A stretch of DNA of 59,631 nucleotides, filler included, from Candidatus Zhuqueibacterota bacterium (GTDB taxonomy: Bacteria > BS750m-G25): assembly GCA_016783505.1 (NCBI GenBank). It is 2 parts of 2 records of this genome, joined end to end, with 100 filler letters (N's around TTAATTAATTAA, not from the genome) between each part and the next. Parts side by side here need not be neighbours in the genome. Positions count along the whole stretch, not along the records: positions 1 to 29,822 come from JADHWK010000026.1; 1 more part is not named here. One strand, 5' to 3'. This document shows positions 1 to 29,595 of this stretch, in pieces. The position numbers and the translations under genes were made by a program. The notes under the pieces are model-generated. The model did not search any database, was not told the origin of the DNA, and was given only the letters and a program-made list of their open reading frames with translations. Positions within the stretch are counted from its first letter, which is position 1, and each line of letters begins with the position of its first letter.

Positions 1-76
1 CTTTCTTGCTCAGGTATATTTAACGAACAAAACCGTTTTAGAAAGGAAGTACCTTTATGGTCAGTAGCGCAAGTTA

Positions 77-787
77 TTAATGGAACATTTTGAGAAGAAA
101 TCTGTTACCATAGTGTAAACACCCTGACAAGCTATGACACTTTATATAAGTTAATACTAAGAATATTGAAAACGCAATAAACCCAAAACTTAATTGAATT
201 CGGTCAGTTTCAACAACAGCCTTAAAACCACCTACAACTATATAAATTAGTGCAACTACAACAAATATAAAAAACAACAACATAAATAAAGACTGACCTT
301 GAGTTGTGTTAACAGCTGAAATTATTATATTACTTGTAAATTCTGCTTCAAAAAATGCTGTACCAGATAGACCGAGCATAGAAGCAATAGCAGCAATTCT
401 GGCTACATTCCCACTTTTATATTTTTTAGCTAAAAAACCATGGATGGATAGAGTAGATTCACTTTGAATATATTTTTTTAAGAGATCATAATCATTTAAT
501 TTTTTTAATAAGAAAAATCCCAAAAACCAAAAGACTGCAACCCATATTGTCCAAAAACCATATATATAACCCCAAGATGCAAAGAGTGAAATGGCTGCAA
601 TCTGATAGGCATATGCAACAGTAGTGTTTAAGAATTCATTGTTATTTATTTTTTTATCAGCCAAGAAGAACTCTCTTGTTGTTTTAGCCCAAGAGATTTT
701 TCTTAATTTCCATAGGAAGATGAAGATTGGAAATGCGACGATTAAAGTTAACAAAATGTACCGAAACGCATTCATTTTTCCCTCCAT
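77..787 (-). pseudogene. Sodium:solute symporter (SSS)-like membrane protein, N-terminal half only
   Basis: EFFLA, HGFLAKKY and YIVVGGFKAVVETDRIQ motifs and several TM helices; only 236 aa, and it ends in non-membrane sequence after LTYIK. Confidence 0.55.
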
Positions 788-891
788 TTAATTTTTTAAA
801 GATATTAATTTGATATTTAAATTATGCAGCTAACATATAATAGACTGCCCCATAGCCGTGTTATAACACGGCGTTTCGGCAAGCATAAAAG

Positions 892-993
892 TTAGATCAC
901 CTTCGCCTCTTCCTTCAGCAGCCTCACCAGTTCGCAAGCAGCACCAGTCCCCTCCCCCACAATCCTTCCTGGCGGCCTGGAAGGAGGATACTC
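892..993 (-). repeat. Diverged copy of the etfB 3' end (distal)
   Basis: Translates EYPPSRPPGRIVGEGTGAACELVRLLKEEAKVI*, matching the C-terminus of 2570-3319. Confidence 0.95.
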
Positions 994-1119
994 TACTGCT
1001 TAAGTGATTTGTTAGCTGACCTTCGACTGCTTTTGACATGACGACAATATCAACAAGGATACTGCTGATCACCGAAGAGGAAATCGGTAATTTTCGTCAG
1101 TAGTTTCTTAGGAGTCCAT

Positions 1120-1371
1120 TTATTTGATAATTCGTTCGTATTCCTCATGAGTGCCAATCCAGACCCAAGTGAAATCATCACCATCTTTGACGGCAAGTGC
1201 TCTATAGTCGAATCCTACTCTGGCAGACCATAACTTCCCAACCTTCTTAAAATGCAAGGAGGGATGCAACGGATTAGCCTTTAGAAGTTGAAAGTTGTTT
1301 TTAGAAATTTTCTGAACATAAGATGGAAGTTTCTCAAAGCATTTCCAGAAACGATTCGTTGTCCGATGCAT
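1120..1371 (-). CDS. RelE/ParE-like toxin
   Basis: 83 aa basic protein with NPLHPSLHFKKVG..WSARVG..YRALA..WIGTHEEY; follows a small acidic ORF. Confidence 0.8.
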   Translation of the reverse strand: MHRTTNRFWKCFEKLPSYVQKISKNNFQLLKANPLHPSLHFKKVGKLWSARVGFDYRALAVKDGDDFTWVWIGTHEEYERIIK

Positions 1372-1572
1372 CTAAAGCTCTTTCAAAGTACCAGCATTTT
1401 TTTCATCAATAGCTTCCCTGATCAAGAAATCCAGCTTTCCTGACTGTGAATCCTCCTCGATCTGTCTGTCCCATTTTTCCCAGTCCTTTTCGGTGAACCA
1501 CTTTCTCAGTTGAACAAAATCCTCCTCTGGAAGGGATTCAATGGTTGCCTTGATTTCGTCAACTTTCGACAT
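1372..1572 (-). CDS. Putative antitoxin
   Basis: 66 aa acidic protein (WDRQIEEDSQSGKLD) directly upstream of the toxin. Confidence 0.75.
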   Translation of the reverse strand: MSKVDEIKATIESLPEEDFVQLRKWFTEKDWEKWDRQIEEDSQSGKLDFLIREAIDEKNAGTLKEL

Positions 1573-1647
1573 TGATGTCTCCCTTCTATCCTCTTATTGA
1601 TTGTCTCGACTTAGGTCAAACTAATAAAACTCGCAGTTATTACCAAT

Positions 1648-1857
1648 TCAGAACATTACTGAAAAACCCTCTTTAACAAAAGACCCAGCAAAGGTGATAT
1701 AAACCTCTGTAATACCTTTCTCTGTTAATTCTTTATCAAATGCCCAACGGTCTTTATTATGGAGAATTACTTCCCCCTCTGGATTATCACTCTCATCGAA
1801 AGCCCGGAAGGCAATCCATTCACCTTCATATGTAGTTTTGGCTTCCTCAATCTTCAT
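1648..1857 (-). CDS. DUF5678-like small protein
   Basis: YEGEWIAF..GEVILH motif; RBS GGGGGAG. Confidence 0.6.
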   Translation of the reverse strand: MKIEEAKTTYEGEWIAFRAFDESDNPEGEVILHNKDRWAFDKELTEKGITEVYITFAGSFVKEGFSVMF

Positions 1858-1893
1858 TATCTCCCCCTTTTTTATGGGACAACAGCATAAAAG

Positions 1894-2005
1894 TTAGATC
1901 ACCTTCGCCTCTTCCTTCAACAACCTCACCAGTTCGCAAGCAGCATCGGTCCCCTCACCCACTATCCTTCCCGGCGGCCTTGGAAGTGGATACTCCATCT
2001 TTAAC
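1894..2005 (-). repeat. Diverged copy of the etfB 3' end (proximal)
   Basis: Translates LKMEYPLPRPPGRIVGEGTDAACELVRLLKEEAKVI*. Confidence 0.95.
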
Positions 2006-2016
2006 GTTTTATTGGT

Positions 2017-2322
2017 TTAATGATTAGCTTTGATCCTCGTTTTCCAATATCCAGGTTTCCTACGCAAATGCATTACTGCGATAATCTCAATACGCTCTTC
2101 TTTACATCTGTATATTAGACCATAAGGAAAACGGAGAACTCGACATTGCCGGATGTCATCTTCAAGAATGTGATAGAGAAGTGGATTTGCCTGGATCCGT
2201 TGGACTGCATCGCGTAAAGCTGCCATCAAGCGCTTGCCTAATCCCGATTGTTGGGATTCGTAATAGCGAATGGATTCGAACAATTCTGCCCTTGCCTCAG
2301 CATGGAATTGAACCGGTTTCAT
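2017..2322 (-). CDS. RelE/ParE family toxin
   Basis: FHAEARAEL..YESQQSGLG..RFPYGLIY..IIAVMHLRRKPGYW. Confidence 0.9.
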   Translation of the reverse strand: MKPVQFHAEARAELFESIRYYESQQSGLGKRLMAALRDAVQRIQANPLLYHILEDDIRQCRVLRFPYGLIYRCKEERIEIIAVMHLRRKPGYWKTRIKANH

Positions 2323-2549
2323 CCGGATTTCCTGCTAAGCTCTTTAAAAACCTGTTCTGCAGGAATTAATTCCACTACGCCTTCATCTATCTCTTTACAG
2401 CGACGCCGGATTTCATCCATCCACTCTGCGCTCACTTCAAAATCTTCCTCGTAATCAAGACTTTCAAGCAGTTTTTCTGCCAATAAAGCCCTTGTTTGCA
2501 GAGGAAGATGGAGTACCTCTCCCACAATTTTGTCAACATCTACTTTCAT
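2319..2549 (-). CDS. Addiction module antitoxin
   Basis: LLESLD..WMDEIRRRCKEIDEG; overlaps the toxin start by 4 nt; likely start MKVDV at 2549. Confidence 0.85.
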   Translation of the reverse strand: MKVDVDKIVGEVLHLPLQTRALLAEKLLESLDYEEDFEVSAEWMDEIRRRCKEIDEGVVELIPAEQVFKELSRKSG

Positions 2550-2569
2550 ATTGGGAAATAACAAAAAAG

Positions 2570-3319
2570 TCAAATCACCTTCGCCTCTTCCTTCAGCAAC
2601 CTCACCAGTTCGGGAACAGCATCGGTCCCCTCTCCCACGATCCTTCCCGGCGGCCTGGAGGGGGGATACTCCATCTTCAACACTTCGATGGAGGGTTCCA
2701 CTGGACAGGGTTCCAGCATGGAAATCTCTTTTTTCTTTGCCGTCATAATACCCCGTAGGGAGGGATAGCGGGGTTCGTTAAGTCCCTTCTGGGCCGTAAT
2801 TACGGCCGGCAGTGGAGTCTCCACCACCTCGATCCCTCCCTCTACTTCGCGGTGGGCCACTGCCTTGCGGGCCGAAATTTCCAATTTTACCACTACCGAT
2901 ACCGAGGGCAGGTTCAAAAGTTCAGCTACCATCACCCCAACCTGCCCCTGATCCACATCCATGGCTTGTTTGCCAAACAGGAGCAGGTCGAATTCCATAC
3001 CCTTCAAGGCATCGGCCAGCAGGGTCGCTGTGACCAGGGAATCCCCGTTGAACTTTTCCGTTTGGATCAAAGCCGCCTCATCAGCCCCCATGGCCAGGCC
3101 GGTGCGCAGGGCCTTGGTAGACCCTTCACCCCCCAGGCAAAGCAGACCCACCGTCCCCCCGAACTTTTCCTTAAGCCGGAGGGCCTCCTCAACAGCATAC
3201 TCATCATACGGGTTCAGGACGAAGTTAACGTCCTTTTCGTCAATGGATTTTCCATCGGAACTAATACGAATAGCCGCCTCCGTGTCCGGCACCAGCTTCA
3301 CACAAACCACACTTTTCAC
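2570..3319 (-). CDS. etfB: Electron transfer flavoprotein beta subunit
   Basis: VCVKLVPDT, NPYDEYAVEEALRLKE, GKQAMD, NEPRYPSL. Confidence 0.95.
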   Translation of the reverse strand: MKSVVCVKLVPDTEAAIRISSDGKSIDEKDVNFVLNPYDEYAVEEALRLKEKFGGTVGLLCLGGEGSTKALRTGLAMGADEAALIQTEKFNGDSLVTATLLADALKGMEFDLLLFGKQAMDVDQGQVGVMVAELLNLPSVSVVVKLEISARKAVAHREVEGGIEVVETPLPAVITAQKGLNEPRYPSLRGIMTAKKKEISMLEPCPVEPSIEVLKMEYPPSRPPGRIVGEGTDAVPELVRLLKEEAKVI

Positions 3320-3426
3320 GTTCCATCCTCAAAACAATGCGTCAATTATTCCAGAAAAACCCCTCCTCTTTCTGGTATCTAAAGTAAAACATTTTTTCCT
3401 AAAATGCAATAGTTTTTTGCGGGAAT

Positions 3427-4044
3427 TCAGGATTTTTTCGTCAACCTGATGATCTCTCCGCTTCGGCTTTCATCCTTCAAGGGAAGGGGGAAAGCTACCG
3501 GCCTGAGCGATGCTATCTGGGGACGGCCCCGGGGGCAGACCGAGCACTCCATGAGTTTACCCCCGTAGAGGGGACGGGTCATCAAAAGCAGGCGTTCCCC
3601 GGTATCAATCTCCAGAGCCGTGCATCCCCCCACCAACCCGGTCTTCAGCCGCTGGGCTAAACACCCGGCTAAACTTTTCCCATAAGGGGTGGCCGCCAGC
3701 AAAAGGACTTCGGGATTATGGGACTCCACAATAGCCGCCAGCCTCCTCACCCAATCCATCCAATCATACCCTTCCCCCTCGACAATCAACAACCGGTCGG
3801 CGCCGTAAAAAAACATCCCCCTGGCCAGCCCCTCATCTTCCCGGGGGAGGATGGCGCTCACATACACCCCCAGGGTGTCCGCCAGCTCCCGGGCTTTCCC
3901 TAAAGCCTCCAGGGAGGCATCCTTGACCCGATTCTCATCCACTTCCAGGAAAACAATCAAACCGCTGGGCTCCCCCCCTAATCCCTCCTCTTCCCCACCA
4001 AAGTAGCCAAACAATTGATCTTCAGGGACGGTTTCTTTCACCAT
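3427..4044 (-). CDS. ETF alpha-like protein, N-terminal domain only
   Basis: SLEALGKARELA, GADRL, TRPLYGGKLM, PQIASLRP; no FAD-binding C-terminal domain. Confidence 0.75.
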   Translation of the reverse strand: MVKETVPEDQLFGYFGGEEEGLGGEPSGLIVFLEVDENRVKDASLEALGKARELADTLGVYVSAILPREDEGLARGMFFYGADRLLIVEGEGYDWMDWVRRLAAIVESHNPEVLLLAATPYGKSLAGCLAQRLKTGLVGGCTALEIDTGERLLLMTRPLYGGKLMECSVCPRGRPQIASLRPVAFPLPLKDESRSGEIIRLTKKS

Positions 4045-4134
4045 CTGTCCACCTTCTATTATCAGCAGGTCACAATGATGCTAAGAAGCTTGCAAGTTGC
4101 CAAAATTGCCATAAGTTCAAAAATTTCAAAAATT

Positions 4135-4315
4135 GTAACAGTTTACCCCGTTGTCATTCCTGTCCCAAGATCGTTTCCCAAGACCCTTCGGGCCGACAGT
4201 CTTTAAAGCAGGAATCCATACTTTCTGATTAGTCCCGAAGGTTCGGGACGGGAATGACAAGATGACTAACTTTTGAGGTTCTAAACAGGTTATTCTTGAC
4301 AGAGTGAACTGTTAC
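4135..4315. mobile_element. MITE with GTAAC terminal inverted repeats and an 8-bp target duplication
   Basis: Ends GTAACAGTTTAC and GTGAACTGTTAC; exact flanking direct repeat CAAAAATT (4127-4134, 4316-4323). Confidence 0.8.
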
Positions 4316-4433
4316 CAAAAATTTTTATAATTTAGTTTGATTCCTTGGAAGTTCTGTATTAAGTTCAAAATAATTTTTGAAATTTTGGCCCCGAAGCTTC
4401 GGGGAACTTTTTGAAATTGGTGAGGTTGAGGAC

Positions 4434-5126
4434 TTATTCTGGCACAAAGGTCATCCGCACCTCGGTCATCGAGCCCTCCCGACCCACCTCGCCCGGGGAC
4501 AGGCTCAGATCGGCCACCCCCCAGACGGTGATGTCCTTTCTGAACGCTTGCATGATCCTCAGGGCACTGGGGATTCGGGGGGAATCGGCCCTGTCGGATA
4601 CCGTAACCAAGAAGGGGGCTTCAATCTTAATTTCCCTACTTTCATCATTGGACTGGCAAACCGCCCACACCCCTTCCCCCTCGACCCGAAGGCCCCTGAC
4701 GTAGCTTATCAGCGGAATTTCCAAAGCCTCTGCTAACCTGGATCCCGTCTGACCCGTTCCCCCAACCGTTGAGAAACTGCCAACGGAAACGAGATCATAG
4801 CCGCCAATCTTTTTTATTGCAGCGGAAAGCACACGAACATTGGCGGCCGCATCCCCCCCCGCAAACGCCGGGTCACAGAGATGAATTGCCCGGTCGGCCC
4901 CCAGGGCCAGCGCCTCCCTCAGAACATCCTTTGCCCCTTCCTCCCCCAGGGTAAGGGCAATAACTTCCCCGCCAGTCGCTTCTTTTAGTACCAAGACCAA
5001 TTCCAAAGCCTTCCCATCCACCGGATTCATAACCCTCTTTTCCGTCTCGATGACCTCGCCCCGGCTCCGGCTCACCTTCATGGCTTCAACATTGGGCACC
5101 TGTTTTATCAATGCAATAGTCTTCAT
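4434..5126 (-). CDS. Second, divergent ETF beta subunit
   Basis: LIKQVP, MNPVDGKALE, LREALALGADRA, GTGQTG; start MKTIAL. Confidence 0.85.
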   Translation of the reverse strand: MKTIALIKQVPNVEAMKVSRSRGEVIETEKRVMNPVDGKALELVLVLKEATGGEVIALTLGEEGAKDVLREALALGADRAIHLCDPAFAGGDAAANVRVLSAAIKKIGGYDLVSVGSFSTVGGTGQTGSRLAEALEIPLISYVRGLRVEGEGVWAVCQSNDESREIKIEAPFLVTVSDRADSPRIPSALRIMQAFRKDITVWGVADLSLSPGEVGREGSMTEVRMTFVPE

Positions 5127-5331
5127 TTCTATCAATCCCTCCAAAGGGACAGGGTAGCATTTTTTCAAAACAGATTTTAATCATTCAGCAACATTCCTTG
5201 ATGCTGAAGTTGTAGCCGCAGGTCACGCCATAGGCGGATCTGCCTCAGGCATGACTTTATGCCTGCGGTCAGTCAGGCTGGTCAGGCGCCCAACTGAATG
5301 ATAACTCCACACCCATAAAGGGCGTTATGAT

Positions 5332-13114: not shown

Positions 13115-14030
13115 CCTTCTCCTTGGTCTTACTCCGGTTCCGCCAAAGATTTTCCCCGATAGAAATATCCTCGAAAGCATCTATATCGAGTGCCGGAGAA
13201 GCGTCTTTTATTTCGATTAATTTAAACCGGGTTCCCAACAATTCACCAAGCTTAGTTTCCATCCCCTTTTTGGTCAATTTTTTCTGTAAATATTTTCTTA
13301 CTTCCCGGCGAGCAAATTTGATAACGGTTACTATCTTTGTAGGATTTCTTAATTTTCGAACCGAATAGGCAAGATTTATTAACTCCAAGTTCCTAATCCC
13401 TTGAGGGTTAGCAAAACCCAGATTGGCGATCCGAAAACCCTTCCTCCCATATTTATCGGCCCCCTCTTTCCCCCTAGAATTATCATCAATCATCCAAAAA
13501 TAAGGTCTTTTTCTGAACCACTTTGTTGTTGGTTTTAGGGTTCTCCGGCTGACTACGGCGAAAAGGAAATCAAAATCCCTTTGATAAGACTGGCATTCCC
13601 TAACAAAATAGTCTATATCGGCCGGGGCTATAAACGGGATATCGGATGGGACAAACAAGGCGTGATTGGTGGCGCTGCTATTTTCATAGCTCAGCAGAGC
13701 GTTTTCCAGAAAGGGTCCCATTTGTTGAACAACCTTTACCGGGGTCTCCATACGGTTTATTATACCGACTTTTTGCTCAATCCTTTTCTTCTCCCCGACA
13801 ATCACAACCTCTGCAATAGTCTTCGCTTTATCCAAAGAATGGAGCACATATTCCATCATAGGTCTTAATTTTATCACCCCATCAATATTGCCTTTAAAAT
13901 TCCTCAGGGGTTTGTATTCACCGAACAAATAAGTTTCGTTGTAGATGAAGCGATAAAGGACCTTACTTATCGAATCATACCAAGATTTCTTTACCTTCCC
14001 CCCTGCTAATAATATTGCGCTGACCATCAT
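13086..14030 (-). CDS. MobA-like NTP transferase family protein
   Basis: AILLAGG, PMMEYVL, PSDIPFI, LDID. Confidence 0.7.
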   Translation of the reverse strand: MMVSAILLAGGKVKKSWYDSISKVLYRFIYNETYLFGEYKPLRNFKGNIDGVIKLRPMMEYVLHSLDKAKTIAEVVIVGEKKRIEQKVGIINRMETPVKVVQQMGPFLENALLSYENSSATNHALFVPSDIPFIAPADIDYFVRECQSYQRDFDFLFAVVSRRTLKPTTKWFRKRPYFWMIDDNSRGKEGADKYGRKGFRIANLGFANPQGIRNLELINLAYSVRKLRNPTKIVTVIKFARREVRKYLQKKLTKKGMETKLGELLGTRFKLIEIKDASPALDIDAFEDISIGENLWRNRSKTKEKDEKGFFSHS

Positions 14031-29457: not shown

Positions 29458-29595
29458 TCGGAAAACACTGAACAACACTGAAATGATCGCTGATTGCTGA
29501 TTGCTGCTGGAGTTTAGGTTTTAACAATCAGCAATCAACAATCAACAATCAACAATTCAGCACTTTTTCGCCACTGCGAACCTTCGGTCGGTATT
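29458..29595. repeat. Intergenic element with 7-mer repeats; inverted copy at about 54085-54243
   Basis: (TGATTGC)n / (CAACAAT)n arms and shared flanks in reverse complement. Confidence 0.75.

Follow-up and report, generated by a model that had tools for sequence, protein, structure and literature searches.

Insertion with long target duplication is the closest described counterpart of the locus considered here. In the portion of Furuta, Abe & Kobayashi 2010 (PMC2853133) on which we draw, the class comprises inserts of <20 kb without mobility genes, flanked by repeats of >30 bp; examples came from every type of restriction-modification system, chiefly in species that are naturally competent, and the authors left the mechanism open. 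Here we describe an array at the electron-transfer flavoprotein gene etfB of Candidatus Zhuqueibacterota bacterium (assembly GCA_016783505.1). The window, the whole 59,631-nucleotide (nt) stretch analysed, consists of contig C23, whose start is position 1, with contig C24 as its second half; the genome is 59.9% complete and has a GC content of 0.464. The array has five copies of the etfB 3′ end, the working one included, and four co-oriented units of cargo, and it puts 11.4 kb of low-GC DNA between etfB and etfA. We hold with moderate confidence that the array is a stacked, well-preserved case of a mode of gene acquisition that has been described but seldom studied; the phenomenon is not new in kind, and other genes show it as well. 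The mechanism is known in outline from the parts of PMC2853133 and of a preprint on tycheposons (10.1101/2020.12.28.424599) used here. For the array itself we favour, at a probability of roughly 55%, serial import without an integrase, anchored in the etfB tail and repeated at least four times.

The etfB repeats (36, 41, ∼102 and ∼112 nt) are all longer than the 30 bp of PMC2853133, and the inserts (564, 900, ∼3,690 and 5,931 nt) are below its 20 kb and carry no mobility genes. The same portion of that paper describes repeats of variable length, often over the 3′ end of a gene, and inserts of often deviating GC, as at etfB. The cases given there are single insertions with near-identical repeats, checked against a genome with the empty site, whereas etfB has four stacked units, repeats that are 84–95% alike, and a synonymous bias among them. 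The cargo at etfB is also not of the restriction-modification kind, but consists of toxin-antitoxin (TA) pairs, a GIY-YIG island and a Lamassu system. Since the class is descriptive, this mismatch narrows the match and does not exclude the mechanism; another locus of this genome (C37, below) does share restriction-modification cargo (type IIG) with the class as PMC2853133 presents it.

Other described arrays match the locus in layout and differ from it in enzyme or content. In the part of PMC5704250 used here, tandem accretion of cis-mobilizable elements (CIMEs), as with ICESt1 at fda, stacks integrase-less units at the 3′ end of a housekeeping gene, with copies of the gene end between them and the gene itself intact. 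The five tail copies with their conserved core at etfB fit this pattern. Accretion arrays of this sort need a cognate site-specific recombinase and originate from integrative and conjugative elements (ICEs), integrative and mobilizable elements (IMEs) or staphylococcal cassette chromosome (SCC) elements; at etfB neither a cognate integrase nor ICE/IME remnants were seen, an absence that a genome 59.9% complete leaves unproven, and the footprint recurs at many unrelated genes. Prochlorococcus tycheposon islands, as far as the part of the preprint used here describes them (10.1101/2020.12.28.424599), likewise grow by successive integrations at one site, with partial target copies between units, newcomers that push older units in, and defence and metabolic cargo; they target tRNA genes and carry tyrosine or serine recombinases, and neither holds at etfB. 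Chromosomal integron arrays resemble the locus in their co-oriented, promoter-poor cassettes, repeated recombination sites and common TA cassettes. The etfB array lacks intI, however, and its tails show no attC-like folding (z-scores of −0.05 to +0.85, no better than shuffles), so it is not an integron. SCCmec and pseudo-SCC arrays at rlmH are a comparable accretion. At rhs and cdiA loci, incoming DNA recombines in a conserved part of the gene and supplies a new 3′ end with cargo, and the old end is orphaned downstream. A reading of the locus made earlier from the sequence alone (the sequence-only reading) had pointed to this likeness, which holds for the mode of displacement and not for the content: rhs and cdiA ends are different toxins with cognate immunity genes, whereas the etfB tails encode the same ending and their cargo is unrelated and self-contained.

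The target gene, etfB (2570..3319, minus strand), is intact; it encodes 249 amino acids (aa) with an ETF domain (PF01012, 5.1e-44) at a GC of 0.56, and NCBIfam EtfB-type models match it below their cut-offs. Tail copy 1 (2570..2681, minus strand) is the working 3′ end of this gene and has the family-typical ending AVPELVRLLKEEAKVI. Copies 2 (1894..2005) and 3 (892..993), both on the minus strand, are orphans that remain in frame and end in a TAA stop codon; copy 2 reads AAC where the family has AVP. Mechanical repeat finding in the window recovered one direct-repeat family with three copies (865–1003, 1867–2005 and 2543–2681). BLAST of window positions 2560–2700 against the organism’s own genome recovered copy 2 (88% identity across 120 nt, E 2.5e-37) and copy 3 (87% across 110 nt, E 4.1e-33). 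An alignment anchored on the stop codons (2570–2572, 1894–1896 and 892–894) reads each copy as 33 codons plus a stop in the etfB frame. By all three approaches the in-frame, stop-bearing tails of the sequence-only reading are real. Their translations, EYPPSRPPGRIVGEGTDAVPELVRLLKEEAKVI for copy 1, EYPLPRPPGRIVGEGTDAACELVRLLKEEAKVI for copy 2 and EYPPSRPPGRIVGEGTGAACELVRLLKEEAKVI for copy 3, give a near-identical EtfB ending in which 3–4 of the 33 residues differ.

Two shorter copies lie on a further contig, C84: copy 4 (C84:88267-88307) is 95% identical to the etfB tail over 41 nt and copy 5 (C84:82305-82340) 89% over 36 nt. Across the five copies E-values range from 2.5e-37 to 1.1e-6, and an in-frame stop ends every one. 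Copies 4 and 5 show no homology upstream of these short matches, where local alignment scores are at shuffle level. Copy 5 is the most decayed, with N at an R/H/K site, V where all 120 homologues used to assess residue conservation at the EtfB end have A, and N where 117 of the 120 have K. Stop-anchored alignment also brings out a post-stop motif (CTTTTWT..., 2546..2569, minus strand) that opens unit 1; related sequence follows the stops of copies 2, 3 and 4, and none follows that of copy 5. The longest identity between individual copies reaches 36 nt, as between copies 2 and 3.

Nei-Gojobori counts with a Fisher test, over 33 codons per pair, confirm the synonymous bias that had been read from the three long tails: the ratio of nonsynonymous to synonymous differences per site (pN/pS) is 0.13–0.24, with p between 0.0006 and 0.0099. 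Copies 1 and 2 differ by 7 synonymous (Sd) and 5 nonsynonymous (Nd) changes (pN/pS 0.24, p 0.0099), and copies 1 and 3 by Sd 8 and Nd 4 (0.18, p 0.0021). The lowest ratio belongs to the two orphans, copies 2 and 3 (Sd 8, Nd 3, pN/pS 0.13, p 0.0006). Unselected drift of two copies would not give such ratios; the tails would thus have diverged within working genes or under an equivalent constraint. The codon counts support purifying selection, not random decay, as the force that shaped copies 1–3.

The array runs off the start of the window. The last 39 nt of C84 are the first 39 nt of C23; elsewhere in the assembly contig ends overlap by 139 nt, so that a standard graph edge does not account for the join. 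A miniature inverted-repeat transposable element (MITE)-like sequence of ∼243 nt lies across the junction (window 1..139 plus C84:91012-91153, also L009:15013-15154), with terminal inverted repeats GGGTGTTTACAC ... GTGTAAACACCC. An unbroken 91% copy of it (C76:10608-10849) aligns straight across the join. The element interrupts an SSS-like gene in frame and is the cause of the contig break; the reading frame that breaks off on C23 is taken up again, in register, on C84, and GC is ∼0.30 on both sides. Element alignment, reading frame and GC thus support joining C84 to C23, which extends the array onto C84. Contig depth over window positions 1–174, the MITE-like end, is 2–7x that of the neighbouring sequence.

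With this join, the order on the minus strand is etfB, the first TA pair, tail 2, a 69-aa gene with the second TA pair, tail 3, the unit 3 island, tail 4, Lamassu, tail 5 and etfA. The recovered genome has a single full-length etfA, whose start codon lies 10 nt beyond the end of copy 5; this etfA encodes 324 aa with PF01012 and PF00766 and is followed by a gene for a CCG-domain iron-sulfur oxidoreductase. We examined 109 homologous loci of other organisms, of which 80 had an EtfB match reaching residue 240. etfA starts ≤355 nt from etfB in 75 of these 80, an indirect indication, from distant loci, of what an empty site would look like; of the five exceptions, two offered ≤100 nt of further sequence. 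Here the distance is 11,391 nt. The sequence-only reading had proposed three copies with TA cargo. The copies it named are there, and the array is larger than it supposed, with five copies, four units over 11.4 kb, a Lamassu system and a split between etfB and etfA.

A second Etf-like pair, ∼32% identical to the canonical EtfB and EtfA, is encoded upstream: an EtfB-like protein of 244 aa (4434–5168) and an EtfA-like protein of 205 aa (3427–4044) that has the N-terminal ETF domain only, without the FAD-binding ETF_alpha domain. The interval between these two genes (window 4045–4433) is rich in inverted repeats (I4, I7, I8, I10, I11 and I18), and its summed contig depth is 180–630, against ∼50 alongside, and alternative joints are numerous there. 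The interval is a hairpin repeat present in multiple copies, probably of a family like the bacterial interspersed mosaic elements (BIME-like).

All twelve cargo open reading frames (ORFs) point in the etfB/etfA direction. The units have a GC of 0.26–0.42, lower than that of etfB (0.56) and of the genome (0.464), and the unlike values of the four units suggest separate origins. Unit 1 (564 nt, GC 0.42) holds a TA pair: an antitoxin gene (2319..2549, minus strand; 76 aa from an ATG at 2549) that matches PF09720 Unstab_antitox (4e-16) and TIGR02574 (8.6e-09), and, overlapping it by 4 nt, a ParE-family toxin gene (2017..2322, minus strand; 101 aa, PF05016 ParE_toxin 5e-11). Unit 2 (900 nt, GC 0.40) carries a 69-aa ORF and a second TA pair. 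The ORF (1648..1857, minus strand) starts 36 nt past the stop of copy 2 and has no Pfam or NCBIfam match even at E 5. Its earlier assignment to DUF5678 is unsupported, as its Atlas score was only 0.80 against 0.96 for an unnamed cluster. A 66-aa putative antitoxin (1372..1572, minus strand) is called from its position alone, abutting the toxin gene; it has no Pfam or NCBIfam match, and its Atlas matches are unnamed clusters. The toxin gene itself (1120..1371, minus strand) encodes an 83-aa ParE-like protein (PF24732 ParE_like, 1.6e-06). By gene layout, with a small antitoxin gene abutting upstream of a small toxin gene, both units would be predicted type II TA systems of the ParE/RelE superfamily.

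The two outer units are islands of lower GC. Unit 3 (∼3,690 nt, GC 0.30–0.31) contains the SSS-like gene broken by the MITE-like element, ORFs of 140 and 178 aa, and a gene for a GIY-YIG protein (7.7e-05). The part of the SSS-like gene on C23 (77..787, minus strand) is an N-terminal fragment of 236 aa at GC 0.31; its match to PF00474 (1.4e-4) scores 21.3 bits, under the 22.8-bit Pfam cut-off. An 18+18-nt palindrome (846..881, inverted repeat I9) stands behind copy 3 at the start of this unit; the terminator scan did not call it. Unit 4 (5,931 nt, GC 0.26) consists of overlapping LmuA and LmuB genes, which PADLOC identifies as Lamassu (LmuB 6e-64 over profile positions 2–987 of 1007, LmuA 1.4e-23). 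The LmuB-type gene matches SMC_N and AAA_23, and with the LmuA effector gene followed by this SMC-like ATPase gene the unit has the layout of a predicted Lamassu system; no LmuC was seen in it. Promoter and terminator scans of 780–2720 and of the stretch before etfA gave counts at shuffle level or barely above it (3 versus 2.6; 4 versus 1.7). The gene order of the sequence-only reading holds, with amendments: the second toxin is ParE_like and not RelE by name, the 69-aa ORF is not DUF5678, and the SSS-like gene is a fragment below the cut-off.

The footprint is not confined to etfB. Self-comparison of the genome returned 211 local direct-repeat matches; in 47 pairs of these a stop codon stood at equivalent positions, and one member lay in a long ORF while its partner was an orphan. 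Curation by eye kept eight further loci in which the 3′ tail of a gene is duplicated downstream of low-GC cargo, without an integrase. The targets and cargo are a Memo/AMMECR1 gene with a mannosylglycerate synthase (C28), a transglutaminase-type gene with a 1,431-aa BcrAD-type activase (C33), V-ATPase subunit C with a 597-aa protein of unknown function and then the subunit F gene (C66), a cNMP-binding gene with a DUF5615 PIN-type gene (C5), an M3-type peptidase gene with a Schlafen AlbA_2 protein (C9), a 162-aa gene with a type IIG restriction-modification gene on the opposite strand (C37), a SEC-C motif gene with low-GC carA-carB (C87), and nfeD with three units (C72). The repeats cover 44–234 nt of the gene end, and several reach ∼70 nt past the stop. 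Cargo GC is 0.34–0.45 and target GC 0.46–0.56; pN/pS is mostly 0.1–0.5, and some orphans carry stops. The main cargo gene is co-oriented with its target in seven of the eight loci. No motif common to the 5′ limits of the repeats was seen by eye across loci. Together with etfB this makes nine loci and about fourteen units. Self-alignment for further 3′-end duplications, proposed in the sequence-only reading, was productive, and by its result etfB, which that reading took as the platform, is not a special one: at least eight other genes bear the same mark.

The remaining candidates were set aside: C35, C69 and C89 are type IX secretion C-terminal domain paralogues, and C19, C26, C50, C57, C63 and C85 are tandem paralogues or unclear cases. 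A sugar-transferase array on C1 was also rejected; its repeats are internal to a gene and not at its end. That stretch (C1:35000-46500) resembles the etfB array in being rich in TA pairs, judged from the look of the sequence only (AbrB/PIN-like, DUF4258/DUF2283-like and other small pairs), and internal Bac_transf sugar-transferase fragments repeat in it at ∼40.2–40.5 and ∼41.1–41.5 kb.

We propose that each import recombines inside the last 36–110 nt of etfB. The incoming DNA would bring its own gene end, from the etfB of a diverged relative, together with cargo; the resident end would be left stranded behind the new cargo and older units pushed outwards. Recombination would be driven by homology and carried out by host functions, anchored in an invariant 22-nt core at the stop codon. 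It could proceed by a single crossover of a circle bearing one tail, by homologous exchange at one end of the insert and illegitimate joining at the opposite end, or by misaligned exchange between strains that each carry a single cassette. Transcripts that start at etfB would then read through the co-oriented cargo into etfA. Many unrelated targets, very different repeat lengths and the lack of a recombinase argue for host homologous recombination over one site-specific enzyme. Entry inside etfB with outward stacking, as the sequence-only reading had it, is still the most economical reading, and copy 5 at the outer end is the most decayed. Its finer points are less firm: we infer that the outermost unit is the oldest, which the decay of copy 5 fits and does not prove, that the donors were relatives, and that no enzyme beyond host recombination took part.

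Several observations weigh against serial import by host recombination. A block of 22 identical nucleotides is at the lower limit for RecA-type exchange. This block is invariant and, like the post-stop CTTTT, present in copies 1–4, while adjacent synonymous sites vary; the 5′ limits of homology also fall into two tight classes, at about −99/−109 for the TA units and −36/−41 for the islands. An invariant core with two boundary classes is what a site-specific att core on families of elements would be expected to leave. Every one of the four units ends right after a complete gene, as would be expected of defined cassettes more than of random joins. Both orphans, copies 2 and 3, have an A where 117 of 120 homologues have V and a C where 112 of 120 have P, so that a once-functional status is not secure; the earlier view of the tails as ends of once-functional alleles, not decayed duplicates, therefore stands in so far as selection is concerned (pN/pS of 0.13 between the orphans themselves) and is weakened by these shared residues. 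Nor was an empty site, a donor allele or a relative found in genome, viral, metagenome and protein collections. The 60 genomes of the relative search all belonged merely to the same domain, with a best EtfB identity of 59%, and a phylum-level genome search returned the source genome alone. Among genome contigs the best match to a related etfB locus was 54%. No full-length EtfB had the ending of copy 2 or copy 3, and the closest of 5.8 billion proteins was 66% identical. An exact 21-mer of the tail core had no match in genome contigs or in viral contigs, and its six matches in metagenome contigs were five unrelated genes and L050, a contig of this locus described below. Finally, a trans-acting integrase may be out of view in the missing part of the genome.

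These points make site-specific accretion through a trans-acting integrase a serious rival, possible in our view although we think it unlikely. It would have elements of one or two families, with an attP that mimics the etfB end, integrate by a tyrosine recombinase that acted in trans or has since been lost, and the units would be CIME-like remnants. The invariant core and post-stop motif of copies 1–4, the two homology-boundary classes and the finish of units after whole genes are all in its favour. The parts of two sources used here provide precedents: a three-step model of decay and accretion at gene 3′ ends (PMC5704250) and outward pushing at tRNA genes (10.1101/2020.12.28.424599). We searched the whole recovered genome for tyrosine (PF00589) and serine (PF00239) recombinases. 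Eight PF00589 matches exist, among them those of an island on C59 whose integrase genes lie beside a 45-nt repeat; all eight are on other contigs or far away, with no match on C23, C24 or the C84 end, and PF00239 has no match in the recovered genome, which agrees with the earlier statement that the window lacks an integrase. The scanned cargo proteins have no Pfam mobility domain, and two cargo ORFs belong to no family. Against site-specific accretion, no integrase, ICE or IME gene was found in the four etfB units or in the ten units at the eight other loci, a wide variety of genes serve as targets, and repeat length ranges from 36 to 234 nt. The repeats are also 84–95% alike with a synonymous bias, unlike the near-identical short att repeats of an island such as that on C59.

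The C59 island is of the classical kind. Its 45-nt direct repeat (97.8%; 13629–13673 and 29517–29561) brackets ∼16 kb, and the tyrosine-recombinase matches, at 27.5–29.4 kb, adjoin one of the repeats.

Independent assemblies carry the structure and some variation around it. The metagenome contig L050 (1,323 nt) equals window positions 880–2202 at 99.6% and reaches from copy 3 through unit 2 and copy 2 into parE. It differs by five bases, two of which introduce nonsense codons into unit 2, one in the gene for the 66-aa protein and one in the ParE-like gene, and from these the unit 2 TA pair may be dead in the L050 population. Logan contigs from runs of three studies, one of which may be the source of the window, match the array junctions with no differences. 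In runs X1 and X2 a unitig covering 1902–4126 has copies 2 and 1 on one piece. A contig covering 997–1913 has unit 2 and the end of copy 2, one covering 888–1026 (X2 only) has copy 3 and the end of unit 2, and one covering 1469–1957 (X5) crosses the stop of copy 2. X1 and X2 also contain a 379-nt contig in which a 93% variant of the copy 3 region (window 881–1026) is linked to 233 nt that do not match the window, and a contig with a joint of 933 to 3081 that has only 36 letters of the tail core on one side. The joint is probably the etfB of another organism that shares the core, and both contigs may come from other strains or organisms with related etfB ends. Run X6, with a strain ∼96–97% alike, has no contig over 1741–2610, and the depth of adjacent unitigs drops outwards (52, 36 and 28 in X1; 55, 50 and 40 in X2); together these hint at strains that lack units, although contig cover and depth cannot show absence.

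This variation bears on whether the array was built elsewhere or long ago and then inherited or imported as one block, with the tails as inert old scars. A pS of ∼0.3 between copies implies that they are old, copy 5 has decayed at invariant sites, and the same array appears in runs of three studies. The copy 3 variant with its 233 non-matching nt in X1 and X2, the five base differences of L050 with two nonsense changes in the second TA pair, and the unequal GC of the units (0.26, 0.30, 0.40 and 0.42) all count against a single block, which we consider improbable. It is highly improbable that an assembler chained the tails of different strains, which the sequence-only reading had named as a refutation: the locus does lie at a contig end in a metagenome-assembled genome 59.9% complete, and unitigs break at copies 2 and 3 because their 36 identical bases exceed Logan’s k, but copies 1 and 2 share a unitig in both X1 and X2, L050 spans copy 3 to parE in one piece, copies that differ by 10–16% cannot be collapsed or chained by identity, and the cargo-to-tail junctions, carried by L050 and the Logan contigs alike, require a real structure.

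A bolder version of serial import by host recombination, which we regard as speculative and rather doubtful, would have gene tails act in this lineage as recombination sites that are portable and enzyme-free, an ‘integron without an integrase’. Cassettes for TA, defence and metabolism, each with a copy of the last 40–230 nt of a host gene, would circulate among related strains as circles or fragments, stack at the ends of many genes by host homologous recombination and be expressed by read-through from the host gene, and repeated exchange would keep the etfB core identical.

If serial import holds, an uncultured FCB-type bacterium would gain defence, addiction and metabolic genes at the ends of ordinary genes without a dedicated recombinase, and would do so repeatedly at one spot, up to the point of parting the genes for two electron-transfer flavoprotein subunits by 11 kb. 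Descriptions of this route have so far been limited to restriction-modification genes, from a few species in culture. Nine loci with about fourteen units in one genome would be enough to measure the choice of repeats, and to look for circles and empty sites in the population. For annotators, diverged in-frame repeats of a gene tail can delimit integrase-free islands at gene ends.

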